From Escherichia phage SR02: a DNA stretch of 64,000 nucleotides. Of this stretch, positions 2,135 to 29,552 are shown one piece after another. How positions within the stretch are numbered: the stretch's first letter is position 1; every line of letters starts with the position of its first letter. A model generated the notes under the pieces. That model was not told where the DNA came from and did no database searches. It saw only the letters and a list, made by a program, of their open reading frames with translations. Location of the stretch: sequence record OQ870566.1; one strand, written 5' to 3'. Made by a program: the position numbers and the translations under genes.

Positions 2135-2500
2135 ATGTGGTTTATTAAATTCATCGTTAAAACGGTTGTAGGCTTCTTTCTGGTCGTTCTTCTGTTGGGT
2201 GTCCTGCTATCGGCTATGGGTAGCGTTAAAGCTGCAACGTTTTCCCCTGCTACGGTGGAAGGTTTACAGTGCACCTATTTGATAGAAAACTATTCGACTG
2301 GTAAAAAGTCACCTAAGGTTATTATTTTACATGTAAATGATTTCGATCATGTACAATCATATGATAAAACTATTCAACTGGTAAATGAATCCACTGGTAA
2401 ACAAATCACGGTCGATCACTTGATGCGCTCATCGTTAACGCTCTTTGATGAGTCCATGAATGAAATGGCATCCGGTTTAGGTCAATGTGTAAATCCATAG
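2135..2500 (+). CDS. small membrane protein (N-terminal TM)
   Basis: AAGAGG RBS; N-terminal hydrophobic segment FFLVVLLLGVLL. Confidence 0.55.
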   Translation: MWFIKFIVKTVVGFFLVVLLLGVLLSAMGSVKAATFSPATVEGLQCTYLIENYSTGKKSPKVIILHVNDFDHVQSYDKTIQLVNESTGKQITVDHLMRSSLTLFDESMNEMASGLGQCVNP

Positions 2501-2576
2501 GCTTAATCTTTCTCCTTTATTGTGCCGTAGTCATGCCTATGGTCATAATTTATCTGATTCTCTAAATCCTTCCTGT

Positions 2577-2602
2577 AAGCCTCCTAGTGAGGCTTTTCTC
2601 TT
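2577..2602 (+). terminator. rho-independent terminator
   Basis: AAGCCTC/GAGGCTT hairpin followed by TTTTCTCTTTT. Confidence 0.55.
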
Positions 2603-2804
2603 TTATAGGGTGATTGTATTCCTTACTCCCTTTTAGCTCGTTGTGATGCGTTACAGGCCGTTAAATGGTGCTTTACAAGCCTTTTCCTACGATGTATCAC
2701 GCGCGCCCGTTCCTTTACCTCCTGATTTCTTCCGGTGTCCTATCAACAATAAAATAAATTCCTTTATAAAACAGTGAGATATAAAATAATTTGAAAAAAG
2801 GGTA

Positions 2805-2832
2805 TTGACAGGGTTTTCCTGTATAGTAATAT
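2805..2832 (+). promoter_or_regulatory. sigma70-like promoter (TTGACA-16-TAATAT) with A-rich upstream
   Basis: Consensus -35 at 2805-2810, -10 at 2827-2832; no ORF downstream. Confidence 0.5.
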
Positions 2833-3010
2833 GAATCCCGTAGTAAGCAGTAAGTAACAACAAGTAGTAAAAACTCCTCGATAGGTGATTAGCATCACGG
2901 TAAAAGGCTTCAACGGGGAGCGGTAGGAATACCGACAGTAAGACGCACAATGAAAGTGCTACGCTCTTTAAAAATCAGGCTAGAAAGTGAAAATATTCTT
3001 AAAAAGAGTA

Positions 3011-3039
3011 TTGACACCGAAAACAGCCTGATTCATAAT
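3011..3039 (+). promoter_or_regulatory. sigma70-like promoter (TTGACA-17-CATAAT)
   Basis: Near-identical ~50 nt unit to the promoter at 3462. Confidence 0.55.
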
Positions 3040-3461
3040 AAGCACTCAGTCAGCGATGACTTAAAACATCCCCGCTCTTTAAAAACTTATCATCTTGCCC
3101 TTTCGCAAAGATACACGCGAGATAAGGGAAAAGAATAAAAGAAGATGATAAAAAAGAGATTGCAAACGTGGTTAAGATAGTCCATACTAACCACAAGTTA
3201 ACAAAACAACGTTAACTAGTTCCCAAATCAACGTATCGCGGGAAAGGTGGCACATAGTGCGGCGAGTAGTTCAGGGTTAGGCGTCCTGTTAATGAATCAG
3301 TAAGCCTTCAATGCCATAGTGATTAGCAGACACTTTAAAAGGCTAACGCTCTTTAACAATATGAATCATAAGTTAAGCCTCACCGCTTAATCTTCAACCC
3401 AATAAAGCGGGTTGATATATCCTCCCAATAGCGGGAACGACGAAAAAAGATTAAAAAGTGG

Positions 3462-3490
3462 TTGACAGCGAAAACAACATGATTCATACT
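3462..3490 (+). promoter_or_regulatory. sigma70-like promoter (TTGACA-17-CATACT)
   Basis: Paralogous to the 3011 unit (AAAAAG.G.TTGACA.CGAAAACA.C.TGATTCATA). Confidence 0.55.
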
Positions 3491-4414
3491 GAGCACTCAC
3501 TAAGCAAATCACCGCTTCAGTGAAAAGCGTAACAACGGCTAACAGTTGCATAGTGTGAGAAAGCACACTGATAGATTTACCGCTCTTTAATAATTTAAAC
3601 ATTCTCCTATATCGGTTGATTATGTTAGATGATAATAACCATCGGATAACATACCAGATAAAACGGTGTAAGATTCTCTAAACTATCAGAGAAAACAATC
3701 TTACAATCCCTTACCGGAAACGTCACCACTGATAAACGGATTCATTGAGTACACGCAACGACTGAAGCTAATCGCCCACGGTTAAGGGTAGCGGCGGTCA
3801 TCGCTAACAAGGTGCTACAGTGAAAGAAGTTAATCAGGGTAGACAAGCCCGACGAATTAACGCTCAATTGAGAGCGGCGGTGAATGGTTAAAAAGTGGCA
3901 AATTGCTATTTAACAATAAGGTTTAGTGTGAACGTTTACGATGTGAACGGCTTGAGATTCATCACAAGATGAAAGTACATAGTCGGTTTATGTAGTAAAC
4001 TTGCCGAAAGATATAAAACGTCAGAACATTAGACGGTCAATGACTCTTTCACAATAGCATCCCGTTGTGGGCGATGGCTAGTGATTGAGAGTTGATACAA
4101 AAGGATAGGCGAGAGCGAAAGCAAAGTAGACGATATTGCCGACGGTTACAATAAACGTAACTAATTAGAGTCGGACGCACTGCCTTATTGTGATGATTGA
4201 TCATCGCTATCAGGTCGGCTTCGTTTATAGCGACTAATTAAAGATACCAGATGAAACATCACGGATAAGGGGGCGGCAAGGTTAACTCCTGATAAGACCG
4301 CCCCGCTTACCTATAACTACTTAACAACGAGTGGTTATAGTTAAGTTAATAGTGACTTAAACAAGCTCATAGAGAGCGGGGCAATAGCGCCCTTACAATT
4401 GAAAGGTGAATATC

Positions 4415-5314
4415 ATGGCTAAAATCTTTACTCTGGTTAACGAATCCGGTTTTAATGCTCTGGCTAACAACATTCGCAGTAATAACGCGGCGATCAAACA
4501 AGATGTTTCTAACTTCCTGTTAGGGCACTTACAGCACTTCCGCAGTAATGGTAAGAAGTTAGATGTATTGCAGGCGGCGGTTGACTTCCTGTTAACCGAA
4601 CGTTTCCGTGATATGGATGTTATTGCTACCTCAATTACTTTCTTAACTCCTATCAAGTTTAACACCGATGCGGCAAATGGTCGTAAAAAGTGGATTAATC
4701 TGGAAGGTGAGGCGAAAGCTAAAGAAGACGCGAAAGAAGCGCAAATTAAAACCAAAATGGAACAAAACCGCGCTCGATGGTCAAATGCTTTCGAAAACTT
4801 TGCTTTAGGCCGTGAAATTGAAGTTGATAACCCTAACTTCTACAAGGGTTGCAATGACAACGTGGCGGCACACCTGCAAATCCCGGCGAAAAACAAGGAA
4901 GATTTTAACCAAGATATTTACTCTTTAGTTGAACGCTTGAATGCAATCCGTATCGAAGCCAAATTGCTGGCTGATGAGCGAAACGGCGCAACTAGTGATA
5001 ACACTATCGCCCTGAGTGAAGAAGTTGGCAAGGTTAAAAAGTCCTTTGATTCACTCATCAAGAAAGTAACGGCCTCGACGGTAGCGATCTCAGACGATTA
5101 TCTGATGAACGCATCAAGCAAGGAGCTGGAATCACTCGATTCATACGCTGATGAAATGGAAAAAGCTGTTACAGCTATGCAGGAGAAGTTAGAGAGTCTG
5201 CGCGGTCGTATCTCTTCAACGGTTGCTACCCGTACCGAACAAGCGGCTAAAGAAGAAGAGGAAGAAGTATTGCGCAAGGCAGCTGAAATTATGGCGGCAC
5301 GTCAGGCAGCATAA
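4415..5314 (+). CDS. hypothetical protein, charged coiled-coil-like C-terminus
   Basis: ATG 4415 with GAAAGGTG RBS; 299 aa. Confidence 0.6.
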   Translation: MAKIFTLVNESGFNALANNIRSNNAAIKQDVSNFLLGHLQHFRSNGKKLDVLQAAVDFLLTERFRDMDVIATSITFLTPIKFNTDAANGRKKWINLEGEAKAKEDAKEAQIKTKMEQNRARWSNAFENFALGREIEVDNPNFYKGCNDNVAAHLQIPAKNKEDFNQDIYSLVERLNAIRIEAKLLADERNGATSDNTIALSEEVGKVKKSFDSLIKKVTASTVAISDDYLMNASSKELESLDSYADEMEKAVTAMQEKLESLRGRISSTVATRTEQAAKEEEEEVLRKAAEIMAARQAA

Positions 5315-5337
5315 GTAAGATAATTCAAATAAGCATA

Positions 5338-5372
5338 AGGCGCTATCTTAACGGGTAGCGCCTTTTCTTTTA
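5338..5372 (+). terminator. rho-independent terminator
   Basis: GGCGCTA..TAGCGCC hairpin + TTTTCTTTT. Confidence 0.6.
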
Positions 5373-5425
5373 TCAGTGCATTGATTCAGTGCATTAATCA
5401 AAGAATCCAATCAAAGGTGACGATC

Positions 5426-10048: not shown

Positions 10049-10124
10049 GCGCTCTTAGCTCAATGGATAGAGCAGTAGCCTTCTAAGCTATTGGTTACAG
10101 GTTCGAGTCCTGTAGGGCGCACCA
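10049..10124 (+). tRNA. tRNA-Arg(TCT): tRNA-Arg (anticodon TCT)
   Basis: Hand-folded cloverleaf: acceptor GCGCTCT/AGGGCGC, D-arm GCTC/GAGC, anticodon loop CTTCTAA, T-arm ACAGG-TTCGAGT-CCTGT, encoded CCA. Confidence 0.85.
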
Positions 10125-14858: not shown

Positions 14859-15221
14859 ATGAATACACGTCCCATCAAGGGCAACGTTAATATTGAAACT
14901 CTGAACAAGGTTGCATCAAACCTCGGTGGAATGTCCAACGATGAGCTTGAGCAAGAACTTGCTTGGATTGCAAATGGTATCAAAGTTGCTAAAGGTAAGA
15001 TTACTCGTGAGCAAAGCAACATGAAAGCTCACAAGTATATCATCCGTCGTGCAAATGTGTTACCAGAGCGGGTTGTACATCTTGCCCGTAAAAACTATGC
15101 AGAAGCAAAGAAAGCTCTGGAAGAAGCTACTTTCCAGAAGCATCAATTTATGAACAACTATAGAAACTTCCGAGATATTCTTTATATCCGTAAGTCGATT
15201 GAGTTGATTAAAAACCAATAG
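14859..15221 (+). CDS. hypothetical protein
   Basis: CAGGAG RBS. Confidence 0.5.
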   Translation: MNTRPIKGNVNIETLNKVASNLGGMSNDELEQELAWIANGIKVAKGKITREQSNMKAHKYIIRRANVLPERVVHLARKNYAEAKKALEEATFQKHQFMNNYRNFRDILYIRKSIELIKNQ

Positions 15222-15232
15222 AGGTTGGTATA

Positions 15233-16432
15233 ATGTTTCCAGTAACATTAGAAGATACTGAAGGTAATGTTTTAACGGTCAACCCTCCTTGTTATGGGTT
15301 CCTTCAGCTTCGCAACTATAACGGTGGCGTTGATGAAGACGATGACGAATATGATGACTACTTCGACCCTAACATGTATGAGGCAACTCATGGGTGGAAT
15401 ATGCACGTTCGAGTGTGGCATGAAGAAGCTAACGTTCGTAGTGCTGATGGGGAAGAGTTCCTGTTAAGCCGAGAGATGGATATGTGTAAAATCAAGCATA
15501 TCTGGAACTCTGGAACTCATATGAAGATGTTAGGTTTTAGACGTTGGCGTGATGAAAAGCATGTAGCTGAAGCTTTAAGTTGGTGTTCGTATGAAGATGA
15601 AGACACACCTCCCAAGAATAACATTGAACGTTGGAACGACAAAAACCCTGAACATCGAACCACACCTCGTGCTGTACTGGAAGCTATGGAAGCATTTGTG
15701 GACAAAGGTCGTCCCTCCTGTTTACGCTGGCACGATAAAGGTTTTATGGGGGTAGCAACTGAGAACATTCCTGCTGATCGTTGTCTGTTCTATTTAATGT
15801 TAGACCGAACCTTCTATTGTGAAGATGAAGAGAGTCAAGTTGAAACCTTCCTTCATAAATGGTTGGTTGAGGGCTGGACAATCCTTCAGGCTTATGTTTA
15901 CTCACGAATGGTTAGCACTTACACTAACCTCTTAGGGGAAACGAAAGCAACTCTGGTTGGTAATGATTGGGATGCTTGTATTTTCCCAGCGTCACTGTTT
16001 ACAGTCGGCATGGCTGATAAATACGCTGAAGCATTTCAAGTTCCTTGGCGTCAACAGTCATATAGAGATGGGTGTGGTCATTTCCGTGATGAAGATTTTA
16101 AGTGGATTCATTATGAGAATGATGAAACAGCAGAGTTACGAGTGAACAACTCAATGTTCTTGCCGGTTATGCACCCTGATCTAGTAAAAGATGAGTCAGA
16201 AATACTCAAAGGTGACAACCTTCTGGTTACCTTTGCTCGTCGGGTATCTAAAGATGAAAGAACAGCTGACAGATTAGTCTACGCTTATCGCGCTGAGACT
16301 AAAGATATGTTCAACATCTACAACATTATTCAGCGATTTAGTAGTGGAACTCTGGACCAAAGTTCGGAGTATTCAGTGATTCCATCCTCTGAGTGGGATG
16401 GTATTATGAGCGGATTATTTTTAGGAAAATAA
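15233..16432 (+). CDS. hypothetical protein (first gene of amidoligase cluster)
   Basis: AGAGG RBS; 399 aa; no motif recognised. Confidence 0.6.
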   Translation: MFPVTLEDTEGNVLTVNPPCYGFLQLRNYNGGVDEDDDEYDDYFDPNMYEATHGWNMHVRVWHEEANVRSADGEEFLLSREMDMCKIKHIWNSGTHMKMLGFRRWRDEKHVAEALSWCSYEDEDTPPKNNIERWNDKNPEHRTTPRAVLEAMEAFVDKGRPSCLRWHDKGFMGVATENIPADRCLFYLMLDRTFYCEDEESQVETFLHKWLVEGWTILQAYVYSRMVSTYTNLLGETKATLVGNDWDACIFPASLFTVGMADKYAEAFQVPWRQQSYRDGCGHFRDEDFKWIHYENDETAELRVNNSMFLPVMHPDLVKDESEILKGDNLLVTFARRVSKDERTADRLVYAYRAETKDMFNIYNIIQRFSSGTLDQSSEYSVIPSSEWDGIMSGLFLGK

Positions 16433-16442
16433 AAGGTTAGTT

Positions 16443-17414
16443 ATGTCAATCTCCACAACGATCGTACCTCTGAATCTTCAACAAGATTTAGGGGAACAGA
16501 AGTTCTTAGGTCGTGGGTGCTTCGGTATCCACAACTACATGCAAGGCCAGTGTGTAAATGATATTAATGGTGAAGTTATAACTGAAGAGGGGCGTTATAG
16601 ACGCTTCAACCGTGATATCAACTTGCAATTGGAGATGTTGAATTACTGGACTCACTCTTTTCACGGTCATATTGCATCTGATATTGAAAAGAACTTGGTT
16701 GAAACAGCAGACATTATGAACTCTATGTCTTGCTATCGTGATGTATTTACGATCACTTCAGCGAATAGTGTTGCTGTCAACCTTCGTGAGCATCCAGCAG
16801 ATCAGATCTTCACAGGACTTATGCTCTTCCGTAGTATTCTGGAAGGGCAATATCGTGGAATGGATTTCCTAGCAGAAGGAATTGAAGACAGGGAAGAGTG
16901 GCTGAAGCGTAAACGCATCGGCATCGCTCTAGTGTTAGCTGGGTTGGGTCGTGACTTCTTCGGTGGATGGTCTCAACGAGGAAGAGCCAATGGGAGTAGT
17001 GAGAGCACCTCTATTGTTATTAACAACAATATGTCAGCAGCAGCATTCCTTCCTTTGGTTGTAGACTCTGATGAATACACGAAGCAAGTGTGGGTTCAAA
17101 ACCCCTTCGGTGTTGGCGACAACGAGAATGGTTATGTTCGTAACCATAACCAAGATGCCTTACGAAGATTTGCTCGTGCTAAAGATCAAGACCCGGACGA
17201 GTATGAAACAATGTCAGAGTGGTTAAGACTCTGGTCCAACTGTTATGGTCACAAACGTGAAGCAATAGACGACAAGTTGGGAAACATTACAGTACAAAAC
17301 TTTACAGCCCGACTAATTCAGCGTACTGGTCCAAGCTCTGGCCTTACTACTGAAGAAGTTGGTAACACAATCTCATCTCTCTTTTCTGAACTAGTGGAGT
17401 ATTACAATGACTAA
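16443..17414 (+). CDS. hypothetical protein
   Basis: 323 aa; tightly packed with neighbours. Confidence 0.6.
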   Translation: MSISTTIVPLNLQQDLGEQKFLGRGCFGIHNYMQGQCVNDINGEVITEEGRYRRFNRDINLQLEMLNYWTHSFHGHIASDIEKNLVETADIMNSMSCYRDVFTITSANSVAVNLREHPADQIFTGLMLFRSILEGQYRGMDFLAEGIEDREEWLKRKRIGIALVLAGLGRDFFGGWSQRGRANGSSESTSIVINNNMSAAAFLPLVVDSDEYTKQVWVQNPFGVGDNENGYVRNHNQDALRRFARAKDQDPDEYETMSEWLRLWSNCYGHKREAIDDKLGNITVQNFTARLIQRTGPSSGLTTEEVGNTISSLFSELVEYYND

Positions 17415-18213
17415 GCGCAAATTCCTTATCGGCTCTGACCCTGAAATGTTTGTTCGTACCAGCAATGGTATTATCACCTCTGTGGCTGGTCTGTTAGGCT
17501 GTTCTAAGGACGATAAGATCACTCTGGCTAAGGATGTTCGTCTTCAAGAGGACAACGTACTGGCTGAGTTTGATATTGACCCACAGAGCGGCTTTGAGGC
17601 GTTTAACGATAACATGCAACGTGGTATCGATCTCACCAACAATGTCCTGAACAAACTGGACATGGAAACAGCTCCGGGTGTTAGCTCTCACATCTTCACT
17701 GAAGAAGAGATGAAGACTTTCAACGAATCAGCGTTCATCTTCGGGTGTACTCCTGATTTCAACGCTTTCACTGGTCAGAAGAATCCATCCCCGACTTCTC
17801 AGAATAAAGGGCTTCGTACTGCCGGTGGTCACGTACATCTCGGCGTAGTTGGTGCTTTGGATATTACTTTGCAAACTCAGATGATGCTGGGTGTGCTGTG
17901 TGACTACTTCCTGTCCCTCCCAGCAGTTATTATGGATAAAGATACTCGCCGTAAAGAACTGTACGGCAAAGCTTCTGCAATCCGTTATAAAGACTATGGT
18001 ATTGAATACCGTTCACTGTCTAACTTCTGGATTAGTGATCGTGAAAACCGTAAGTTTGTTTACGATCAGGTTGACAAGGTTGTTCAGCAGTGTGATATGT
18101 CCACTCTGATGGCATTGCACTCTCGCCTTCCGATTGAGAAGCTTCATGAAATCATTAACGGCAACAACGTTAAAGAAGCGGACCAGCAGATCAAACTCCT
18201 TCAGGTAGCATAA
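17407..18213 (+). CDS. amidoligase-like protein (divergent GS-like COOH-NH2 ligase paralog)
   Basis: GSDPEMF and GGHVHLG motifs resemble the amidoligase core; divergent. Confidence 0.45.
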   Translation: MTKRKFLIGSDPEMFVRTSNGIITSVAGLLGCSKDDKITLAKDVRLQEDNVLAEFDIDPQSGFEAFNDNMQRGIDLTNNVLNKLDMETAPGVSSHIFTEEEMKTFNESAFIFGCTPDFNAFTGQKNPSPTSQNKGLRTAGGHVHLGVVGALDITLQTQMMLGVLCDYFLSLPAVIMDKDTRRKELYGKASAIRYKDYGIEYRSLSNFWISDRENRKFVYDQVDKVVQQCDMSTLMALHSRLPIEKLHEIINGNNVKEADQQIKLLQVA

Positions 18214-18222
18214 GAGGTTATC

Positions 18223-18840
18223 GTGAGCTTAGTAGCTGATTTTTCTCATTACTATAATGGTACATGGATTGCTAAACGAGCAGGTAATATCAACCTTCCA
18301 TGTTTTGTGATTGGTGTTGAGCAGAGCGGTAACTTCCGCAGCGATGACTTCTCTCACGAAGCAGAGCAGGCTCTGTATTTTGTTGTAGAGCAGTGGTACA
18401 AGAATGAGCAAGGGAATCTTCGAAACACTACGATGAATATTCCAGTGTTCGACCCAACCTTGATTCTTGAATCACCTGATGTTGGTTATCTGTTCCATAA
18501 CGGTAACACTGTAAGCTGGACTCATATTAACCCTGTTCGTCAGAGAGCAAAGGGTTTGATGGGTAATAAGATTCGAAATGCTCCGGGTGTTGGTCGTGCC
18601 ATCTCCGGGGAGATGGTTTACAGCCTGTTCAATCCTGAATTCGAGGGATTGGTTACTCGTTATATTTACATCAACCCTACTGATGGTAAGGTGCATTATA
18701 AAGGTGCACTGGTAGGACAAGTAGATCTGGAAGCACCTCGTGACTCTTACGGTCAGCAATCAATGCGACTTCTGGAACACTTTCATCACATTTCTGAAAA
18801 CCTTAGCAATTACAATATTACGTTGGTGGATTCGTTATGA
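18223..18840 (+). CDS. hypothetical protein
   Basis: GTG start with AAGAGG RBS. Confidence 0.5.
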   Translation: MSLVADFSHYYNGTWIAKRAGNINLPCFVIGVEQSGNFRSDDFSHEAEQALYFVVEQWYKNEQGNLRNTTMNIPVFDPTLILESPDVGYLFHNGNTVSWTHINPVRQRAKGLMGNKIRNAPGVGRAISGEMVYSLFNPEFEGLVTRYIYINPTDGKVHYKGALVGQVDLEAPRDSYGQQSMRLLEHFHHISENLSNYNITLVDSL

Positions 18841-19940
18841 CAACTGTAGCGCAAACTTTTGGATATCGAGAAGGTCGTTTAACTGAGGCGCATAGTTCAA
18901 TTGCACTTCAGTGCGGTGTCGGTATTGAACTTGAACTCGAAGGTTCCGATCATATCGAAGCAGATATGTGGGATTGTACAGAGGATGGTTCCCTGCGTAA
19001 TGGTTGTGAAATGGTATGTTCACGACCTTACAACGGACAGGAGTTGTTAGACGCTATCAACAACCTGAGTGAAGCAGTAGCTGAATCGCACGCCGAGGGG
19101 ACTTGGCGTTGCTCTACTCACGTTCATATGGATATGAGGGATGCTGATAGTAATATCCTCAAGAAAACCATTCTCGCTTGGACCTTCTATGAAAAGATGT
19201 TGTTCAAGTGTTCAGGCTATCATCGTTACCGTAGCAACTTCTGCCCTGCGTTTGCAGTGGTACAAGCACAGGTAATGAATGCCTCTGACGCATTTAACTA
19301 CGACGATGAAGAGTTCTTCAACCGTCTGGTTCGTTCATGGGATAAGTATACATCCCTGAACCTTCTGCCACTTGCCCAATACGGTTCGATTGAATTCCGT
19401 ATCAGTGAGCCTAAGTGGAAACGTGGTCAACTTCTCAATCTGGTTAACCGCTTCTTGATGTTGAAGAAGCTGGCTTTAGATAACGCAGAGATGAGCAATG
19501 ATCAGTTTATTGAGCATTTAAATACTGTACGATTTGCCCCAATGCTTCCTTACCTTCCTCTGGATTACAATCTGGACGAATCGGATTTGCATTCAGGGTA
19601 TTGTATGGCCCGTGATGTTTTGTATTGCCGTTCTCATGGAGTAGAGCAGTCTGGTCGTATTCGTTTACGTCGAACCAACTCCAACGGAGAAGTTCTTGTT
19701 GACTTACGTCTTATCTCAGACTTCTACGGATTCCTTGGATATGTACGAGGGAACGCTAACAACTTGTACCAAGAGATTCTGGTTATGCTTCGTACAACTG
19801 ACCTATCTACTGTACGATCTGCACCAGAGCAACGTATCCGTGCTATTTTTGACTTACTGCGTGAGTCAGGTCACAGTGATAGCAATATCACAGGGTACAT
19901 TCCAGATCATCTGGAAAATCAGTTAGAGCAAGCGCTGTAA
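18837..19940 (+). CDS. putative amidoligase (glutamine-synthetase-like COOH-NH2 ligase)
   Basis: GVGIELELEG and CSTHVHMDM motifs. Confidence 0.55.
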   Translation: MTTVAQTFGYREGRLTEAHSSIALQCGVGIELELEGSDHIEADMWDCTEDGSLRNGCEMVCSRPYNGQELLDAINNLSEAVAESHAEGTWRCSTHVHMDMRDADSNILKKTILAWTFYEKMLFKCSGYHRYRSNFCPAFAVVQAQVMNASDAFNYDDEEFFNRLVRSWDKYTSLNLLPLAQYGSIEFRISEPKWKRGQLLNLVNRFLMLKKLALDNAEMSNDQFIEHLNTVRFAPMLPYLPLDYNLDESDLHSGYCMARDVLYCRSHGVEQSGRIRLRRTNSNGEVLVDLRLISDFYGFLGYVRGNANNLYQEILVMLRTTDLSTVRSAPEQRIRAIFDLLRESGHSDSNITGYIPDHLENQLEQAL

Positions 19941-20019
19941 TCAATGGGTGCCTCTGATAAAGGGGCACAATTTAAAGGTTAATTAGATGAAAGGGTTTAC
20001 CCTTCAGGTGGATTAGAAA

Positions 20020-22050
20020 ATTTGTGGCATCGTATTAGCTGGCGGTAATCTGTCAAGCACTGATTTAGATGTATTCAACCAACTCTTTTATGCTGGAGTG
20101 TTCCGAGGACAACATTCCTCTGGTATCTTTGGTCAGCGTAAGAGCACTAAGGAAGTCTTCACCTATAAAGAAGCCCTTCCTTCTTTCGCATTCATCCTTC
20201 AAGATGAGTACAAGAAGCACACCACTGGTGAAACAGCTTACACTGTAGCACCTTCATGGATTGTTGGTCATAGCCGTCATGCAACGAAAGGTGCAGTTAA
20301 CGCCAAGAACGCCCATCCTTTCCAACATGGTAACATCACTCTGGTTCATAACGGAACCTTGATGGACCAAGATCTGTTACCTGACAGCAAAAACTTCGAG
20401 GTAGACAGTGAGAACATCTGCCACTCTATTAACACTATTGGTGCAGCAGAGACTATTCAAAAGCTGGATGGTGCTTTCACCTTAATCTGGCATGATGCTT
20501 CTGACAACCGTCTTCATATCATCCGTAACGAAGAGCGTCCATTCCATCTCGCACGTTGTAACAGAGATTGGTTTGGTGCTTCTGAAGAAGACATGTTGAT
20601 GTGGATTCTGAAGCGTTCTAAGTCTCACAAGAACCGTATTGATGAGCACTTTGAATGTAAAGTTGGTACAGAGTATATCTTTGACATGTCAAACAACAGT
20701 ATGACTCTAGTTGAAGAGGTCGCCCACGAGCTTCCGGTTTTTACGGTAATCAATCGTTGGGGCAATTACTACTCGAACAACTACAGCCAAAGCAATTATC
20801 AAAGTTCCTCAAAAAGCAGTACAAGCAATCCTTACGACACGAAGCCGGGAGTGACAGCGGCAGACGTTCGTCGAAGAAACGCAGTGGTAAGTCAAAACAA
20901 AATCGCAAGCGATCGAAACATTGATATTCGCCGCGATATGACTGTGGAAATCACACCACATGAGTTTATTCCTTATGCAACTGCTGGTGCTGTTCCTTCT
21001 CGTGGTAAGATGATCGGTTATATCTACGATGAGAAGTCTCAAGAGTATATCGAAGGTGATGTTCATAACGTAGACATTAAGGCTTATCAGGATGCCCTGA
21101 AAGACCCTAAAATTGTTTACCGTGGGACAGTATCCTGTATCTCCGAAGTTAATGCTATGGTTCGTTTAGTGATCACAGCAGGTCGTTTTGTTGACCCATC
21201 TCTGGAGAAAAAGGAGCCTGAGTCTACTACTGCTGACTTTGATGATGATATCCCTTTTGATATGAATGATAGTTTCGTCAATAAGAATGGCGTTACTATC
21301 ACTCGTAAATTCTGGGAAGCACACTCTCATGGCGATTGCGGTGGTTGTGACAAACACATTGATTGGAAGGATGCACCTAAAGCAGTCTTCGCATATCAGT
21401 GCTATTGGCACCCTGAATGTCTGGAAGGTTTGACTAAACCTAAAGATGAAGAAGAGGAGGAAACTCCTATTGGTGTTTGTGAAATCTGCGGTGAAGTTAA
21501 AACAGAGAACGAGTTCGATGATGAACTTAGTCGTCTTCGTGGTGAAGATATCTGTAAAGTCTGCGCTGTAGATGTAAAGAAGAAAGTATCTAATGCTACA
21601 ATCAAAGATGGTTATGTCTGGATTAAAGCAACAGATACAACAAACGCCCGTCGTCCTGAATTTGCTTTACGTGTAACTGAAGATATGATTGGTCGTATGA
21701 CTGTATTACCTTCCTCAGCGAAACAGACAGGCATCACTCTGGAGGATGTTGTTGACGCTTATGTTGAGAAACGTAGCAACAGTATTTTTGCAATCTCAAC
21801 TAAGCCAAAAAAGGAGGAACCTGCTGAGAAAGCAGGTGTGTTTCCTGAATCACGAACAGCTCTCCGCAAAACTGTTGTCAGCTTCGACGGAAACCGAAGC
21901 ACTGACTTCACCAAAGCCATGTGGTCAACCCTCGGCTACTGCTCAGAGTGTTTTAAGCAGATTCCGTGGCGCGATGCTGAAAGTTGTACGCTTGGTTCTA
22001 TGAATCAAGTTTATTGTAATTCTCCTAAATGTTCATTGAATAGAGGTTAA
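20020..22050 (+). CDS. class-II (Ntn) glutamine amidotransferase with C-terminal Cys-rich metal-binding region
   Basis: CGIVLAGG...RGQHSSGIFG...GHSRHATKG...NAHPF...VHNGT; catalytic Cys codon at 20023 lies upstream of the first canonical start (GTG 20098); start drawn at ATT 20020 with AGGTGG RBS. Confidence 0.65.
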   Translation: MCGIVLAGGNLSSTDLDVFNQLFYAGVFRGQHSSGIFGQRKSTKEVFTYKEALPSFAFILQDEYKKHTTGETAYTVAPSWIVGHSRHATKGAVNAKNAHPFQHGNITLVHNGTLMDQDLLPDSKNFEVDSENICHSINTIGAAETIQKLDGAFTLIWHDASDNRLHIIRNEERPFHLARCNRDWFGASEEDMLMWILKRSKSHKNRIDEHFECKVGTEYIFDMSNNSMTLVEEVAHELPVFTVINRWGNYYSNNYSQSNYQSSSKSSTSNPYDTKPGVTAADVRRRNAVVSQNKIASDRNIDIRRDMTVEITPHEFIPYATAGAVPSRGKMIGYIYDEKSQEYIEGDVHNVDIKAYQDALKDPKIVYRGTVSCISEVNAMVRLVITAGRFVDPSLEKKEPESTTADFDDDIPFDMNDSFVNKNGVTITRKFWEAHSHGDCGGCDKHIDWKDAPKAVFAYQCYWHPECLEGLTKPKDEEEEETPIGVCEICGEVKTENEFDDELSRLRGEDICKVCAVDVKKKVSNATIKDGYVWIKATDTTNARRPEFALRVTEDMIGRMTVLPSSAKQTGITLEDVVDAYVEKRSNSIFAISTKPKKEEPAEKAGVFPESRTALRKTVVSFDGNRSTDFTKAMWSTLGYCSECFKQIPWRDAESCTLGSMNQVYCNSPKCSLNRG

Positions 22051-22052
22051 GT

Positions 22053-22286
22053 ATGGAAATTCGTAAGATGATGCTGGATAACGTTGTAACTACTCGACGT
22101 ATCCCGATGACGAGCACAGGATGTGATAACCTTCGTGCAATCCAGAAGTGGATGCAAGCTGGTATTGGTCAAGTACTTGAGACACAGGTTGAGGTTCCTT
22201 TCCCAACGGTGATCAATAACGTACTTGCTGATTATGTAAAAATCAAAGGCATTAAGGTAGAACCTCATGTCAAATCTGGTTCCTAA
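22053..22286 (+). CDS. hypothetical small protein
   Basis: ATG 3 nt after the amidotransferase stop. Confidence 0.4.
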   Translation: MEIRKMMLDNVVTTRRIPMTSTGCDNLRAIQKWMQAGIGQVLETQVEVPFPTVINNVLADYVKIKGIKVEPHVKSGS

Positions 22287-22491
22287 GAAACCGAAGATCA
22301 CTCTCCTACAATATTACATAGGAGTTCATATCGAATTAGTAACGGAGCAGCGAAAGCTGTATCCGTTCGCTTTCGGTCTGATTGATGCACCATCCGATGA
22401 AGTAGAGAACGACGCGTTCAACGACTACTTCGAAATTGAAGCTCAGATTCAAAAAACTCGTAACGAAATTCTTAAACTTAAAGGTATCTAA
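22267..22491 (+). CDS. hypothetical small acidic protein
   Basis: Overlapping start. Confidence 0.4.
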   Translation: MSNLVPKKPKITLLQYYIGVHIELVTEQRKLYPFAFGLIDAPSDEVENDAFNDYFEIEAQIQKTRNEILKLKGI

Positions 22492-22493
22492 CA

Positions 22494-23690
22494 ATGACTA
22501 CTCGTATCCGTGTTCTTCCTTATGGCCCTTCTGATTCAGTTCGTGAACTTACTTCTGCAATTAACACTAAGATTCAGGAACTTCGACTAAATGCTAACGT
22601 AATGTCTCTGGTATCAGAAGGCTCTCGTTATCGTTCTCGTGTTGGTGATATTGTTGTCAACTACGGAAACCGTCGATACAACGACTCTTTCTTTGGTGGC
22701 GCAACTGTGTTGAACTCTGTGGTTGCCTTGAACCGAGCGGCTAACAAAGTTGCAGCATTTAACGCACTGCGTTTAGCTGAAGTCAAAACTGTTGAATACA
22801 CCGTCGATCGTGAAGTAGCTCAGAACTGGAACCGGAATGAAATTGTTTATGAACGTGGAACCTTAACTGGTCACTCTGGAGAAGGTATTACTGTTCGTCT
22901 TACGCGAGAAGGTGTTGCGGATGCTCCTCTATACACCAAAGGCATCCAAGGCCCACGTCGTGAATGGCGTGTTCATGTGTTCGAAGGTGTTATCACTTAC
23001 GTTCAGAAGAAGATTCGTCGTAATGGTTATCGTGAACTGGAAAGTTATCGTGAAGATATTCGTAACCATCACACTGGTTGGGTTTATTCTAACTCCTTCA
23101 CTGAAGCGCCTCCTGATCAAGTTCTTATTCAAGCTCACAAAGCTGTATCTGCTCTGGGTTTGAACTTCGGTGCTGTTGACCTGATTAGCAAAGGTACTAA
23201 CGCATGGGTTCTGGAAGTTAATACAGCTCCGGGCCTGACTGGCACAACTCTGGAAACCTACACTCACAACATCGTTGAGTTTGTTAAGAGTTTCTCTGGT
23301 GTTGATCCTGACTACCGCGTTGCTTACGAACTGCCTGTTGAAGAAGTGGAAGAAGAATTTGCTGAATCGGCAGATGACGAAAACTTTGCATTGGCAGCTG
23401 AGCCAGTTGCTGAAGAGTCTTCGGAGCCTGTTCCTGAAACAATGCAAGTTGAAGAACAAGGGTTAGAGATCAACCCGGTAACCCGTCGTAATCTGCGTCG
23501 TGGTTATTATATCGCTAACATCAAGCATCCTGAAAACGGTTCGACTGTAGCAAGTAACGTGATCTTGTTCTTCTGTGGTCGTAACTTCTACCGCTCTGGA
23601 TGGAACGCACCAATTAGTGATCGTCAGCTTGGTCGTGTGTTGCAGATTAATAGCCTTACCCTGAATGATGGCACTGTTGTAAACTACTAA
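22494..23690 (+). CDS. ATP-grasp family ligase (RimK-like) with acidic C-terminal extension
   Basis: ATP-grasp core including WVLEVNTAPGL. Confidence 0.7.
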   Translation: MTTRIRVLPYGPSDSVRELTSAINTKIQELRLNANVMSLVSEGSRYRSRVGDIVVNYGNRRYNDSFFGGATVLNSVVALNRAANKVAAFNALRLAEVKTVEYTVDREVAQNWNRNEIVYERGTLTGHSGEGITVRLTREGVADAPLYTKGIQGPRREWRVHVFEGVITYVQKKIRRNGYRELESYREDIRNHHTGWVYSNSFTEAPPDQVLIQAHKAVSALGLNFGAVDLISKGTNAWVLEVNTAPGLTGTTLETYTHNIVEFVKSFSGVDPDYRVAYELPVEEVEEEFAESADDENFALAAEPVAEESSEPVPETMQVEEQGLEINPVTRRNLRRGYYIANIKHPENGSTVASNVILFFCGRNFYRSGWNAPISDRQLGRVLQINSLTLNDGTVVNY

Positions 23691-23696
23691 GGATAT

Positions 23697-23945
23697 ATGG
23701 ATATGTTTTCATTGGAAGATCTAGTACAAAATGGAATGATGGAACAAAAAGAGCCTCTGATTGTAGGCTCTCGTAAAGAGTTGCGTAAATTGTGTGAGGA
23801 GTGGGGTATTACTAATCAGCGAATGATTGGTAATCAATTCTCTGCAATTGTAACTTTCCTAAAACGTGGTGATAAGTATTCTATGGAATGTGTAGAACGT
23901 ATCATCGCTGAAGCACAACAAGATAAAGGAGTAACATATCTGTGA
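23697..23945 (+). CDS. hypothetical small protein
   Basis: AAGGA RBS. Confidence 0.4.
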   Translation: MDMFSLEDLVQNGMMEQKEPLIVGSRKELRKLCEEWGITNQRMIGNQFSAIVTFLKRGDKYSMECVERIIAEAQQDKGVTYL

Positions 23946-24148
23946 ATAAGTATAAAGTCCTGTTTAAAGATACCAATGCAGCTGGCGAAATGCGAGCAAT
24001 GGATATTGACGCTGAATACTTCCGAAGTGAGCTTGATCAGATAGTATTCTATGAGCGCGGTAGTCGACCTGCTAATGAATCAGAAGTTATTGCTTCATTC
24101 GGTAAAGAAGCAATCTGCGGTGTAATCAAAATCTTTATTACAGAGTAA
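23942..24148 (+). CDS. hypothetical small protein (GTG start)
   Basis: ORF-track only. Confidence 0.3.
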   Translation: MNKYKVLFKDTNAAGEMRAMDIDAEYFRSELDQIVFYERGSRPANESEVIASFGKEAICGVIKIFITE

Positions 24149-24217
24149 TCTGCTCTAGTCTCTTCGAAAGAGGAGGCTAGTTCGGATAAACTAAACAAAC
24201 CAACAAAGGTATAGATA

Positions 24218-24637
24218 ATGTCAGAAGTAATTTACGTAGCAACTTATGGTTCTCTTCGTCGTGGTCAAGCTAACTATCTAGTTAATGACCGAGCTGGTGC
24301 TAAGTCAATTGGTGAAGGTTGGACTGAAGACAACTTTGATCTGTTCCGCTATGGTGGTTCCTACTTCCCAAGCATCTCTCTCGCACACAGCAATAACAAT
24401 AAGCCTGTTCGTGTAGAAGTGTTTGCTACTGACAAAGCAGGTCTGGAAGGTCCATACGATCGTCTGGAAGGTTACAATAAACGTAGCCCTGAAGATAGCT
24501 TCTATCAACGAACTCAGATTGCCGTTAAGCTGGACTCAGGTGAAACTGTTATCGCTTGGATTTATCACATTGACGAAGAACAAGATGTTCTGGTTGAATC
24601 TGGCGACTGGTCAGAGTATCTGAAAAGTGAATCTTGA
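24218..24637 (+). CDS. AIG2/gamma-glutamyl cyclotransferase-like protein
   Basis: ATYGSLRRG and LDRLEGY motifs. Confidence 0.55.
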   Translation: MSEVIYVATYGSLRRGQANYLVNDRAGAKSIGEGWTEDNFDLFRYGGSYFPSISLAHSNNNKPVRVEVFATDKAGLEGPYDRLEGYNKRSPEDSFYQRTQIAVKLDSGETVIAWIYHIDEEQDVLVESGDWSEYLKSES

Positions 24638-24856: not shown

Positions 24857-26647
24857 ATGTCAAAGATCATTTTGGGAGACACAGGTTGTAAGGAATGTAT
24901 CTCTCATGGTCGTGATAAAACCCACAACCACATGATTCTCTTCCGTAACGAAGAGACAGGTGAGGAGTGGGGAAGTTGTAACCGTTGTGGGAATTACGAA
25001 GTGTTCGAAAAGGGCACTACACCTACTCCAAACGAGAAGAAAGAGTTGTCCCCTGAAGAGTTAAGAGAAGTCTTAGATGATTGCTTAGAGCTTCCTCAGG
25101 GTGAACTCACTCGACGTTTAATCCCTAAAGCCGTATCAGAGCGTTTTGAGTGTCGCATTGGTCTAAGTCAGACTGATGGTCAGACTCCAGACAGCTACTT
25201 CTTTCCTCGTGAACGTGATGGAAACATTGTCGGTTATGAGGTTAAGCTGCTTGACAGTAAGAAGTTCTATTACGTTGGCAGTGTGAAAGAAGCAGATTTA
25301 TTTGGTATGGCACAGGCTCAGCGTGGTGATGTGTACAACAAGAAGCTCTTCATTTTTGAAGACCCGCTATCTTGTATGTCTGGTTTCCATGTCCTTACAG
25401 CTTTTACAAATGCAACAAACATTAAACCAGCATGTGTTTCTTTACCGTTCGGTGCAGGTTCAATCTCTTCTGTGTTGTCTCGTAATCGAGACTTCGTAAA
25501 TGGTTTTGAGGAGGTTGTGCTCTGCATGGACAACGATGATGCAGGTGAGATAGCTTTAACAAAAGGTCGTTCTTTATTCCCTCATGTTAAATTTGCTCGT
25601 ATCCCTAAAGGAACTTTCCCATACAACGGTGTGGAGAAAGAGATTAAGGATGCGAATGACATGCTTCTGTCTGGTCGTGGTCAAGAGTTATTCAACATTC
25701 TCAAGTACTCAGCAAAGCGGGAATCTCCTGCTGGAGCTGTAACAATCTTTGATTGCCTTGATGATGCTCTGAAGAAAGCGGAGTGGGGTATCCCATATCC
25801 GTGGAAGACTCTGAATGAGATGACCTTCGGTATTCGATGGGGAGAGGTGGTAGCAATCGGTGGTGGTGTAGGTAGTGGTAAAACATTAATTGCTCACGAA
25901 CTTGTTGCTCATCTGTGCTTAGAGCATGGTTTTAATGGAGGTGGCTTCTTCTTGGAAGAGAAGGTAGGCATGTCTGTTAAGAATATCGCTGGTAAGTCAG
26001 CATCAATCCCTTTCCACCGACCTGATGTTGAATATGACGAGGAGGATTTGCGTAATGAAGCACTTCGTTATGCAGACAAATTCTTCTTGTATGACAACTT
26101 CGGGCAGAATGAATGGGAAGACATTAAACAGTGTATCCGTTTCTGGGTAGTTGAAAACCAGTGTAAGTTCATCATCCTTGATAACATTACCGCTCTGGTA
26201 TCTCATTTAACACCTTCAGAAATTAACACCGAAATTAGTAAGATTGCTTCCGAGCTTGCTGGTATGTGTAAAGAGTTAGACTTTACCGCTTTCGTACTAT
26301 CTCACCTTAATGCTCCGGCAGGTGGTGCTCCTCACGAAGAAGGTGGACAGGTACGTGAAGTCCAGTTCACTGGCTCTCGTTCTCTTATGCGTTGGTGTCA
26401 GTGTATCATTGGCTTTGAGCGTGACAAGCAAGCTGATGGCTTAGCTAAGAACCTCTCAGTCATTCGATTACTGAAAGAACGTAATTACGGTCAGACGGGT
26501 GTCTGCTATACTAAGTATATCAGTGAAACCGGTAGACTTGTAGAAAGGGAAGACTTTGAAGTTGATGAAGATAATCCATTCGTTTTAACTAACGGAGAGG
26601 ATGCAGCTTCTCTCGTCAACCAAGCAGATGGAGCTTCACCGTGGTAA
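24857..26647 (+). CDS. DNA primase/helicase (T7 gp4-like)
   Basis: N-terminal Zn finger CKEC...CNRC, TOPRIM-like region, Walker [10 protein letters not shown]. Confidence 0.85.
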
Positions 26648-27195
26648 AGAAAAAGAAAGTGTTTGCATTCGATATCGAGAGTAATGCACTGTACGATGAC
26701 ATAACTAAAGTGTGGTGTATTTACATCTTCGATGTTGAAACTGGTGAAAGGTGGGGCTATCGGCCTCACCAAATTGAAGATGGGATTCGTAAACTTACAG
26801 AAGCTGATGTGCTCGTAGGTCATAATATTATTGACTTCGACCTTTGTGCTCTGAAGAAGATGTATCCCAATCTGATCGACTATCGTTTTAACGTCTTTGA
26901 CACTTTATGTCTTAGTCGATATCTTAAACCTGACCGTATTGGTGACAGTCCTGAGTATCCGAAAGGCGACCCTAGACATGGCCCAAGAGGTCATGGCTTG
27001 AAGCAATGGGGTGAGTTCTTAGAGGAACTTAAAGGTGACTACGGTGAGCAAGAGGAAGCATGGGATGCTTTCACTGAGGATATGTTTACTTATTGTGAAC
27101 AGGACGTTAACTTAACTGTTAAGGTTTATCTTTTCTTGTGTGAACTCACGGGATTTGACCCTTACGACCCACCTTCATTATATTGGAAAATGTAA
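26641..27195 (+). CDS. DNA polymerase 3'-5' exonuclease domain protein (split family A polymerase, N-terminal part)
   Basis: FDIESN, HNIIDFD, YCEQDV exo motifs aligned by eye to T7 polymerase residues 1-190. Confidence 0.8.
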
Positions 27196-27196
27196 A

Positions 27197-28495
27197 ATGA
27201 TTGTTATCCCGATTAACCGAATTGAAGATAAGGTTGCTCAACAACCTGATATCACTGTTGGTCGTCACTTTATTGAACAGTTGATTAACAACAACTTGAT
27301 TCCAGATTGTATTTGTCCCATCATCACTGGTGGGGCTGTTCGTGATGCTGTTCTTAATAATAGAGCACCTCATGACATTGATATCTTTATTGTCAGAGGA
27401 CAGGCACCAAGAACCCAAAATACTTTTATCCATCATGACCAGTGGCAAGATCTCGGACGAGAGGTTGAAAGTAATGTGAAAGAGTGGCTCGAGTCTCAAG
27501 ATATTGAGTACTCTTCCCTTCTTGCTGAATCTACAGATGAGCCGTATACTGGGACTTCTCAACTAACATTCACTGATATTATTGAGTTTCAGTGGAATGG
27601 GGTTCGTATCCAATTCATGTTTAACTATCCTACTTCTATTGAAGAGGTATTGGATAATTTTCCTATGATGTGTCGTGGTGCGATGACTCTTGACAAGCTG
27701 TTCATGACCCCCCATGGATATTTGTCTATGACCTCTCCTTGTCCAGTAGTTGTCTCTGGTCGTGAAATCAAGTATGTTCACAAGAAGTGGCCTAATTCAC
27801 AGGTATTAAGATTCTCCTCTCCATCTGTTGCATACCAATATATGGCACAATCTCGATATCTTCCTACACCTCAACCAGTTAATCATCTGGTCAACGAACG
27901 AGGTCAGGTTGCTCTTATTGAGGATACAACAAGTGCTCAGTATTGTGTTGACCGTGACATGAGTCGATTCTTTGGAATCCCTTATGAAGAGATTCAGTTA
28001 ATGTCAAGCACACATGGCTCTAGCCAGATTCATGCGTATTGGTCTGAAGGGTTGACAAATTTAACAACTAACACGGGTGGTGATCTACTTGGTCGAGAAG
28101 AGGAACCTAACCGACACAATGCAATTGAAGGGGTGTTTGTAGCCCCTGCAATGCGTAGAGCACAAGAGTCACGAAGAGTAAGCCCTACTCGTAGAACATC
28201 TTTTGAAGAAGCTCTTGGTATTACAAGAGATTCTATGGAGAGATGGATGGCTAGCACCTCTCGTGGTCGACCAAATGGTTTGACTGTCAGCCGTCATCAG
28301 TTCTCTGGTCAGGGCTTTGCTGTTGGCGATCTTGATATTCCTTCTCATGGTGAGCTGGCTGAGACTGTCAGTCGCAGTCTCGCTGATCGCTTTGTTGCTA
28401 ACAACCCTGAAGTATTAGAACCTCAAACCCGTACAGTTCGGTTTGCTGATGAAGCGGGTCGTGGAATCTCTTTTGACGTAGAAACAAATAACTAA
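27197..28495 (+). CDS. nucleotidyltransferase (pol-beta superfamily, CCA-adding/poly(A)-polymerase-type head) with unknown C-terminal extension
   Basis: GGAVRDAVL...HDIDIF motif. Confidence 0.55.
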   Translation: MIVIPINRIEDKVAQQPDITVGRHFIEQLINNNLIPDCICPIITGGAVRDAVLNNRAPHDIDIFIVRGQAPRTQNTFIHHDQWQDLGREVESNVKEWLESQDIEYSSLLAESTDEPYTGTSQLTFTDIIEFQWNGVRIQFMFNYPTSIEEVLDNFPMMCRGAMTLDKLFMTPHGYLSMTSPCPVVVSGREIKYVHKKWPNSQVLRFSSPSVAYQYMAQSRYLPTPQPVNHLVNERGQVALIEDTTSAQYCVDRDMSRFFGIPYEEIQLMSSTHGSSQIHAYWSEGLTNLTTNTGGDLLGREEEPNRHNAIEGVFVAPAMRRAQESRRVSPTRRTSFEEALGITRDSMERWMASTSRGRPNGLTVSRHQFSGQGFAVGDLDIPSHGELAETVSRSLADRFVANNPEVLEPQTRTVRFADEAGRGISFDVETNN

Positions 28496-28504: not shown

Positions 28505-29059
28505 ATGAGTTTACTAGGAAGCCCAGAGTTACATAAACTAATTGATGATGGTGTTATTGATGCACCACACTCAGCTGTTAACTCCTCCAGCATTGACGTC
28601 CGTATTGGAGATCGTGTTCTGATGGAAGGTGCAGCTAATGGGGTTGTTGATATCTCTGCTAAAGAATCTCCTAACTTCAACGAGGTTATGATTCCAGAGG
28701 AAGGGTTGGTGATCAAACCGGGTGAGTGTTTCTTGGCTCATACAGTGGAGACATTCAATCTTCCAGACAACATTAGCTGTGACTTCATGCTACGATCTAC
28801 TGTCGGTCGTTGCTTCTTAGAGCACATGCACGCTGGTCATGCAGATGGCGGTTGGCATGGCAGTCAGTTAACTATGGAATTCAAGAATGTCCTACAACAT
28901 CACTCTCTTCTGATCAAGCCGGGGATGCGTATTGGTCAAATGGAGTTCTTTAAACACTCCTCATCCGAAGAGGACAGTTACGCAACGAAAGGTTCATATA
29001 ATAACCAACAAGGGCCGACAAAAGCTTTTGGTGGAACAAACCATGCTGATATGCTATGA
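28505..29059 (+). CDS. dCTP deaminase/dUTPase-family protein
   Basis: SSIDVRIG, RSTVGR, ADGGWHGSQLTMEF motifs. Confidence 0.65.
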   Translation: MSLLGSPELHKLIDDGVIDAPHSAVNSSSIDVRIGDRVLMEGAANGVVDISAKESPNFNEVMIPEEGLVIKPGECFLAHTVETFNLPDNISCDFMLRSTVGRCFLEHMHAGHADGGWHGSQLTMEFKNVLQHHSLLIKPGMRIGQMEFFKHSSSEEDSYATKGSYNNQQGPTKAFGGTNHADML

Positions 29060-29552
29060 TGAAGTAGTTGACCTCTTTAATATAGACATGTCAGCACCTT
29101 CAGGGCTTTCTTGGAAAAGGAAGCCTAGTAAGTTTGCTAATGATATAGTAGGTAAACCTGCTGGTAAGCTCACAAAAGATGGATATTATCAAATTCCCTT
29201 AGGAGGAGTTCGTGTCCATAATCATAGGATTCTTTTTGTTCTTTATACTGGTGAGGATTTATCGGATGAATATCAAATAGATCATGCTGACGGTAATAGA
29301 GAAAACCTAGAAGAAACTAACCTGAGAAAATGCTCTCACTCTGAGAATAGTCAGAATGCTAAGACAAGGGTTGATAACAAACTAGGAATCAAGAATGTCT
29401 ACCGAGAGAAAGGTGGAACGTTCTGTGTATCTGTTCAAAAAGACGGTAAACGTGAGTCTGTATATGGGGTGAAAACTCTTGAAGAGGCTAAGATTTTGGC
29501 TAAGTCTATGAGAAGTAGACTTCATCTCTCCTTTAATGTGGATGAAAGATAA
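29043..29552 (+). CDS. HNH homing endonuclease with C-terminal AP2-like DNA-binding domain
   Basis: YQIDHADGNRENLEE...HSEN HNH motif; AP2-like VYREKGGTFCVSV. Confidence 0.7.
   Translation: MLICYDEVVDLFNIDMSAPSGLSWKRKPSKFANDIVGKPAGKLTKDGYYQIPLGGVRVHNHRILFVLYTGEDLSDEYQIDHADGNRENLEETNLRKCSHSENSQNAKTRVDNKLGIKNVYREKGGTFCVSVQKDGKRESVYGVKTLEEAKILAKSMRSRLHLSFNVDER

Follow-up and report, generated by a model that had tools for sequence, protein, structure and literature searches.

The 64,000-nucleotide (nt) stretch of Escherichia phage SR02 DNA analyzed here (sequence record OQ870566.1; hereafter the window) originates from a phiEco32-like E. coli podophage (Kuravirus, Gordonclarkvirinae). On its plus strand it carries an open reading frame (ORF) for a 432-amino-acid (aa) nucleotidyltransferase (NTase) at positions 27197..28495, with an ATG start and the stop codon (28493-28495) included. 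This ORF and its GGAVRD and HDIDIF motifs, first picked out in a preliminary description of the sequence, were confirmed. The ATG is located 1 nt past the stop codon of the exonuclease gene that precedes it (TAA-A-ATG), and annotated orthologs have the identical start; with an alternative GTG at 27140, the ORF would overlap this gene. The product is 100% identical to the phage SR02 protein, is an ortholog of phiEco32 gene 73 (gp73), and is matched by PHROG 12715 ('nucleotidyltransferase') with E=5e-239. Comparison with six orthologs (Nei-Gojobori) gave a ratio of nonsynonymous to synonymous substitution rates (dN/dS) of ~0.11 over residues 1-225 and of ~0.26 over the C-terminal rest. Lysate proteomics of phage SU10 yielded one peptide of the NTase ortholog, whose gene belongs to the early class. 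The low dN/dS, the PHROG 12715 match and the SU10 peptide together identify the ORF as a real coding gene rather than a chance ORF. Packaging of the NTase in the virion, an idea that came from the SU10 proteomics and from a lysine depletion like that of ejection proteins, was dropped as unsupported: the SU10 sample was merely precipitated with polyethylene glycol, and the single peptide therefore speaks for expression, not for packaging.

The NTase gene was found by tblastn in 97 phage records, all of them Escherichia or Shigella phages, and an exonuclease neighbor of at least 60% identity was likewise found in 97 records (compared as totals). The equal counts, taken at face value, imply a subfamily-wide gene, which is thus probably present throughout Gordonclarkvirinae. 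Close relatives of the phiEco32 gene-73 type are 80-92% identical to the window protein and have the same placement relative to the exonuclease and dCTP deaminase genes. An exhaustive profile search for the NTase family in 1.84 billion representative proteins yielded no more than 33 clusters, with no canonical CCA or poly(A) enzymes among the matches; the family members are 274-482 aa long and are confined to phages. The protein was previously annotated as a nucleotidyltransferase or a class-II CCA-like domain and is named in the literature. The present analysis adds the boundaries of its ~210-aa domain and of its family, and shows that the family as a whole has lost motifs B and D and is homologous to Gad2 and to the head-only NTases of podophages. 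Also new are the lysine-free, selected and modular tail and a strict exonuclease-NTase-dcd synteny that holds down to ~25% identity. As things stand, what we describe is an annotated gene for which some descriptive features are new; it does not amount to a new kind of system.

Conservation was counted over 37 family representatives, which outside the own clade of the window protein are 23-39% identical to it. Residues 1 to ~210 are well conserved family-wide (Table 1). Invariant positions are G45, G46, R49, D50, D60, D62, F64, Y117, I128, Q139, P156, Y193 and K197, and at positions 127 and 190 only D and E occur. The preliminary description had named substitution of the catalytic DxD in orthologs as a sign of lost function; both aspartates are retained in 37 of 37 representatives. 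An AlphaFold2 model of residues 1-240 made with the 37-sequence alignment has a mean predicted local distance difference test (pLDDT) score of 87.8 and a predicted template modeling score of 0.82. The hallmarks of Pol-beta NTases are present, namely the hG[GS] helix-turn, DxD on the next strand, a third carboxylate on a following strand (for which position 127 is the candidate) and the alpha-beta-alpha-beta-alpha-beta core. By motif and model, residues 1 to ~210 very likely fold as a Pol-beta-type NTase of the class-II CCA/poly(A)-polymerase lineage and form an active two-metal enzyme. The extension beyond this domain, earlier described as ~300 uncharacterized residues, is shorter, at ~220 aa: the conserved domain spans ~210 rather than ~130 residues, and a further ~75 aa (211-285) are weakly shared by the family.

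Table 1. Features of the SR02 NTase and of genes discussed with it (window positions; invariance over 37 representatives unless stated otherwise)
Feature	Position	Strand	Remarks
Primase/helicase, T7 gp4-like	24857..26647	+	head of conserved block
184-aa T7-Pol-like 3'-5' exonuclease	26641..27195	+	subunit of split DNA polymerase; upstream of NTase
Conserved N-terminal domain, residues 1-210	27197..27826	+	N-terminal helices (1-38), Pol-beta NTase head, first neck helix
Motif A part 1, G45-G46-A-V-R49-D50	27329..27346	+	G45, G46, R49, D50 invariant (37/37)
Motif A part 2, H59-D60-I-D62-I-F64	27371..27388	+	metal-binding carboxylates D60, D62; D60, D62, F64 invariant (37/37)
Strand D127-I128-I-E-F	27575..27589	+	127 is D (28) or E (9); I128 invariant
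Strand I-Q139-F-M-F	27608..27622	+	Q139 invariant; aligned to 'IQLIH' strand of Gad2
F155-P156-M-M-C159, CCA-enzyme motif B position	27659..27673	+	xFP instead of RRD; P156 invariant
Neck motif P183-VVVSG-R189-[E190]-IK-Y193-VH-K196-K197-W-P199	27743..27793	+	[D/E]190, Y193, K197 invariant; EDxxR absent
Residues 211-285	27827..28051	+	in most family members, weakly conserved; ends with aromatic motif A-Y-W282-S-E-G
Lineage-specific tail, residues 286-432	28052..28492	+	predicted unstructured; R/E/S/G/T-rich; in-frame block indels; purifying selection
Best-conserved tail motif R326-R-V-S-P-T-R332-R-T-S-F336-E-E-A-L-G	28172..28219	+	R326, R332, F336 invariant between two Gordonclarkvirinae clades
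C-terminal motif RFADEAGRGISFDVETNN	28439..28492	+	retained by every close ortholog in spite of deletions immediately before it
dCTP deaminase	28505..29059	+	downstream of NTase
tRNA-Arg(TCT)	10049-10124	+	own discriminator A and 3'-CCA encoded (...GGGCGC-A-CCA)

The relation of this domain to CCA-adding enzymes and poly(A) polymerases is limited to part of their characteristic features. The nearest solved folds to the NTase model are CCA-, CC- and A-adding enzymes, with ~150-166 residues aligned structurally, and the NTase has the motif A of the class-II type, GGxVRD...DxD (GGAVRD at 45-50, DID at 60-62). The Pfam family PF01743 (PolyA_pol) scores 20.9-22.5 bits versus a gathering threshold of 23; it matches 28 of the 37 family members, and none of them reaches the threshold. 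In profile searches, hhalign comparisons and searches that used the phage Percy protein as a bridge, the alignment with E. coli Cca, PcnB and the CCA enzymes of the PDB was limited to motif A, and a sequence-level mapping of CCA motifs B-E onto the NTase was consequently abandoned. The equivalences between motifs were therefore taken from a joint MAFFT alignment combined with the order of predicted secondary-structure elements. They are uncertain around the neck helix, where we regard them as tentative; all structural statements are based on AlphaFold models.

At the motif-B position this joint alignment shows RRD for Cca and PcnB. Gad2, Percy and LKD16 read xFD there, and the NTase family reads xFP. 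The domains of 25 members contain neither the RRD of motif B, which recognizes the ribose 2'-OH, nor the [ED]DxxR of motif D, the amino-acid template for cytidine and adenosine triphosphates (CTP/ATP); the neck helix has [RT][DE]xxYxx[KR]K in place of EDxxR. No Pfam RNA-binding domain was detected in the NTase. In contrast to class-II CCA enzymes and poly(A) polymerase I, which have RRD, EDxxR and an RNA-binding body and tail, the SR02 protein thus lacks all of these, and it has an extra N-terminal helical segment (1-38). Judged by its motifs, it is not a canonical CCA-adding enzyme, and its nucleotide pocket, devoid of RRD and EDxxR, is unconventional. The CCA-type head domain proposed earlier is hence borne out by motif A and the fold, but not by PF01743 or by motifs B and D, while the absence of the canonical body and tail was seen correctly. 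Among CCA enzymes, poly(A) polymerases and minimal NTases, the domain has a CCA-type fold, but its nearest relatives are head-only phage NTases and the NTase domain of Gad2.

Gad2 (anti-Gabija protein 2, PF26128), a phage protein of ~400 aa, is predicted to contain an NTase domain. Phage SPbetaL7 needs Gad2 to escape the Gabija defense system, and a Brevibacillus homolog is sufficient for escape; its mechanism was not yet established as of 2026. Only the close orthologs of the SR02 NTase bear a precomputed Pfam label for this family (PF26128, 'Gad2 (weak)'). We compared the NTase family with a profile of nine homologs from the supplementary table of the Gad2 paper. The hhalign probability was 89.3% (E=2.1e-6), and 93.7% (E=1.9e-7) for domain-trimmed alignments. 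The alignment can be extended to 146 columns, covering residues 21-200 of the NTase and 16-172 of Gad2, and does not continue past Gad2 residue ~172. A sequence search of the PDB returned no match to a Gad2 structure. Both families have GG...DxD(Y/F)F and the IQ strand, Phe occupies the motif-B position in both, and they share the neck pattern P-h-h-S-x-x-R-x-x-K-Y-x-x-K, whose P..R...Y..K spacing is that of the invariant P146..R152...Y156 of Gad2; both are restricted to phages and both are devoid of EDxxR. They differ in that most Gad2 proteins have GGxITS where the NTase has GGAVRD, and in that Gad2 resides in the anti-defense locus of SPbeta-like Bacillus phages and the NTase in a replication module.

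The second group of relatives consists of short phage proteins made up of the head alone. A structure search of BFVD retrieved many phage proteins of 167-254 aa, annotated as PolyA_pol-head or nucleotidyltransferase, with E-values from 1e-9 to 1e-4. The whole ~200-aa module of head-only NTases such as gp13 of Caulobacter phage Percy or members of PHROG 1614 can be aligned to the NTase, and the predicted folds are similar: Percy gp13 (204 aa) matches the family profile over residues 20-198 with a probability of 95.7% (E=1e-8), and PHROG 1614 matches the NTase with E=8e-8. In gp16 of the phiKMV-like phage LKD16, motif A alone aligns. Similar to the SR02 gene, the head-only podophage NTases are found in replication modules; in contrast to it, they are sporadic accessory genes there, lack a long tail and have FD, not FP, at the motif-B position. 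In the literature searched, we found no experimental characterization of any head-only phage NTase. None of the PADLOC models (CD-NTase, MenT/AbiEii and others) matches the NTase, and NCBIfam gave nothing meaningful.

The C-terminal part of the protein has a different character. Sequence past residue ~285 is present in fewer than half of the family members. In the full-length AlphaFold2 model, obtained from a shallow alignment, pLDDT is below 35 from residue 240 on; the overall pLDDT of this model was 44, and it was excluded from fold searches. The residues beyond ~240-285 are apparently disordered, as far as the model can be trusted. Close relatives have lost different blocks of 16-24 aa of the distal tail in frame, while the R326 motif and the C-terminal RFADEAGRGISFD.ETNN are always retained. 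At window position 28328/28329 (between residues 377 and 379), SR02 itself is missing a block of 21-24 aa (INAPVRAVWTDEGVAQDVV..GS) that is present in most orthologs, and phiEco32 and WFI101126 each lack a different neighboring block of 16-17 aa. Since different relatives lack different blocks, the distal tail behaves like a series of modules, each of which can be dispensed with. The tail is net acidic, and its C-terminal acidic/aromatic peptide is conserved; the C-terminal motif is a candidate docking peptide.

The C-terminal region 231-432 has no lysine (0 of 202 residues). The whole NTase contains 6 lysines in 432 residues, compared with 6.0% in the long ORFs of the phage (binomial P~2e-6), and lysine poverty is observed family-wide. 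Internal and ejection proteins of the phage are lysine-poor as well: the ORF at 56491-57522 (-), assigned to a PHROG 'membrane protein', has 0.3% lysine, and the 'DNA ejection protein' ORFs at 54627-55676 (-) and 53646-54611 (-) are among the next most lysine-poor long ORFs. The amidoligase/ATP-grasp ORFs at 18837-19937, 22494-23687 and 16443-17411 (+) have ~2.5% lysine against the 6.0% background. One idea is that lysine poverty shields proteins from being modified at lysines, either by the host or by the phage's own amidoligase system.

We speculate that the NTase is a Gad2-like counter-defense enzyme, and assign this interpretation, which is made by analogy, a probability of roughly 0.35-0.4. 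It is ranked first because the only characterized member of the clan has an anti-defense function and because this phage group is unusually resistant to defense systems. The NTase would be an active two-metal transferase of nucleoside or deoxynucleoside monophosphates, made early alongside the replication genes and acting on a hydroxyl acceptor that is not tRNA-specific. It could use a nucleoside or deoxynucleoside triphosphate (NTP or dNTP) to modify a nucleic-acid 3'-OH, for example at phage DNA ends or in nascent DNA; alternatively, its product could be a nucleotide derivative. In both cases a nuclease-type defense of the host, for example Gabija or restriction systems, would be blinded. 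The tail might be a flexible adaptor through which the NTase docks to a partner, possibly a T7-like replisome.

Several observations weigh against a Gad2-like function. The link to Gad2, drawn from profile comparison, is remote: the plain nine-sequence Gad2 hidden Markov model scores 8-22 bits with family members, and the window protein falls below the reporting level. The invariant D107 of Gad2, in F-D-(F/Y)-T (FDFT), corresponds to the invariant P156 of the NTase family, and the C-terminal domain of Gad2 is structured and lysine-rich, in place of which the NTase has its lysine-free disordered tail. Because of the weak scores, the change from Asp to Pro and the unshared C-terminal domain, we consider the NTase family, on the available alignments, a separate family in the Gad2 clan and not a member of Gad2 itself. 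The gene is found at one and the same place of the replication module in 8/8 contexts, it is apparently present subfamily-wide, and purifying selection on its N-terminal domain is strong. Housekeeping genes of replication or nucleotide metabolism show such a pattern more typically than variable anti-defense genes do. An RNA acceptor is also plausible, as the closest solved structures are those of RNA 3'-end enzymes.

A bolder form of the counter-defense interpretation would make this Gad2-clan enzyme the cause of the broad resistance of Gordonclarkvirinae to defense and restriction-modification (RM) systems: recruited to the T7-like replisome by its lysine-free, acidic tail, it would act on nascent DNA or DNA ends by modifying them, or produce a nucleotide-derived decoy, and so blind nucleases that sense DNA ends or nucleotides (Gabija and possibly RM systems). 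We consider this doubtful. If true, it would provide a first way into the mechanism of Gad2-type NTases; Gabija is reported in more than 15% of sequenced genomes. Gordonclarkvirinae are abundant, broad-host-range and therapy-relevant E. coli phages whose marked resistance is unexplained, with the NTase locus as a suspect. The clan shared with Gad2 and the head-only NTases could be studied in one tractable model, the BASEL phages Bas86-94 on E. coli K-12. Should the protein instead be a tRNA or replication enzyme, it would represent a minimal class-II NTase working without the canonical nucleotide-selection motifs.

The gene context suggests another possible role, that of a replisome accessory. 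The NTase, tethered by its tail to a T7-like replisome, would have primer or DNA 3' ends as its substrates during replication, for example in non-templated addition at genome termini or on RNA primers. The order primase/helicase, exonuclease of 171-185 aa, NTase and dCTP deaminase is invariant in 8/8 divergent contexts and in annotated relatives, and the exonuclease-NTase junction is tight: the gap is 0-1 nt at most loci and reaches 19 nt at others. The small NTases of LKD16 and Percy also adjoin a helicase or primase gene. The acidic C-termini of T7 gp4 and gp2.5 dock onto the polymerase, gp4 by means of its C-terminal Phe, and the acidic tail of the NTase with its acidic/aromatic terminal peptide recalls such docking tails, which the helicase of the phage itself also carries. 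On the other hand, synteny within one phage lineage is not independent evidence, and among the short family members the tails differ and are often basic. Moreover, Salmonella phage 7-11, the nearest outgroup, has the same split polymerase and helicase and replicates without the NTase: in its locus L011 (4992-6271), a 49%-identical exonuclease gene is followed, across a 185-nt gap, by the dCTP deaminase gene, at the very place where Gordonclarkvirinae have the NTase. The NTase gene is therefore specific to the SR02 lineage, and a role as replisome accessory is in our opinion unlikely.

Two further observations concern the same module. The primase/helicase C-termini are acidic with a terminal aromatic residue (...QADGASPW, ...RDESLPF and ...ENDKSPW, in 24857-26647 of the window, L025 627-2459 and L026 638-2434, respectively), and some NTase tails have similar 'SPW' or terminal W/F motifs. 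The NTase gene follows a 184-aa exonuclease labeled 'DNA polymerase', and we considered whether it could be the missing replicative polymerase; this was rejected, as relatives encode a separate family-A polymerase of 613-614 aa ~8 kb downstream. The split family-A polymerase has already been described for these phages, with the polymerase subunit encoded ~8 kb away.

The restriction resistance of these phages could also be explained by a DNA modification. Humolli et al. (2025) reported strong RM resistance without a recognized modification and named the dcd+NTase locus as a possible DNA-modification pathway; the NTase and the dCTP deaminase would then take part in a covalent modification of DNA or of the dNTP pool that shields the genome from restriction. 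The window contains 27 EcoRV, 9 EcoRI, 9 EcoKI and 89 EcoP1I sites, normal numbers for the tested enzymes, and avoidance of these sites is thus rejected as the cause of the resistance. Loss of the ribose-selecting motif B may permit the use of dNTPs. However, no profile matched an NTase-dependent pathway of DNA base modification, and ThyX, encoded in the same gene block of relatives, argues against deoxyuridine-containing DNA. A dCTP deaminase beside ThyX is an ordinary pair for the supply of thymidine triphosphate, and phage 7-11 has dcd without the NTase. We find this explanation rather improbable. In the window as a whole, 6-bp palindromes are observed 659 times versus ~1081 expected from composition, and the 14 absent ones are all G+C-rich; CCWGG is strongly depleted (9 versus 70), and GATC moderately (150 versus 236).

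Repair or tailing of tRNA 3' ends, with C, C and A re-added or ends extended after damage by host nucleases or tRNA-tail defenses in order to sustain translation, appears similarly improbable. It draws on the CCA-type fold and motif A, on the tRNA-Arg gene of the phage, which the preliminary description had already pointed out, and on the existence of defenses that cut or modify tRNA 3' tails, for example Cas12a3. The homologous small NTases of Autographiviridae are routinely annotated as tRNA nucleotidyltransferases, but these published annotations are homology-based. The NTase has neither of the two domains, body and tail, with which tRNA is bound and measured, the ribo-CTP/ATP selectors in motifs B and D are absent family-wide, and PF01743 stays below its threshold; moreover, the tRNA-Arg gene encodes its own CCA, and the host has Cca. 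A degenerate, catalytically irrelevant NTase fold that serves as a mere binding scaffold, as the non-canonical motifs B and D and the large disordered part might suggest, is highly improbable given the invariance of the metal-binding and motif-A residues across ~25%-identical members and the dN/dS of 0.11.

Other genes near the NTase include a 206-aa ORF at 28932-29552 (+), whose product resembles an HNH homing endonuclease (DHADGNREN...CSHSEN) and which overlaps the 3' end of the dCTP deaminase gene. An HNH endonuclease is annotated here in relatives and is absent in Bas91, which points to a mobile insertion in the replication block. Upstream of the replication block, a cluster at ~15000-24500 (+) of the window, and at 1-5400 of loci L005 and L006, encodes a glutamine amidotransferase, a glutamine synthetase (GS)-like amidoligase, a COOH-NH2 ligase, a RimK-type ATP-grasp protein and a gamma-glutamyl cyclotransferase. 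Together they make up a system that forms peptide or amide bonds, and the cluster is conserved even in relatives of ~30% identity.

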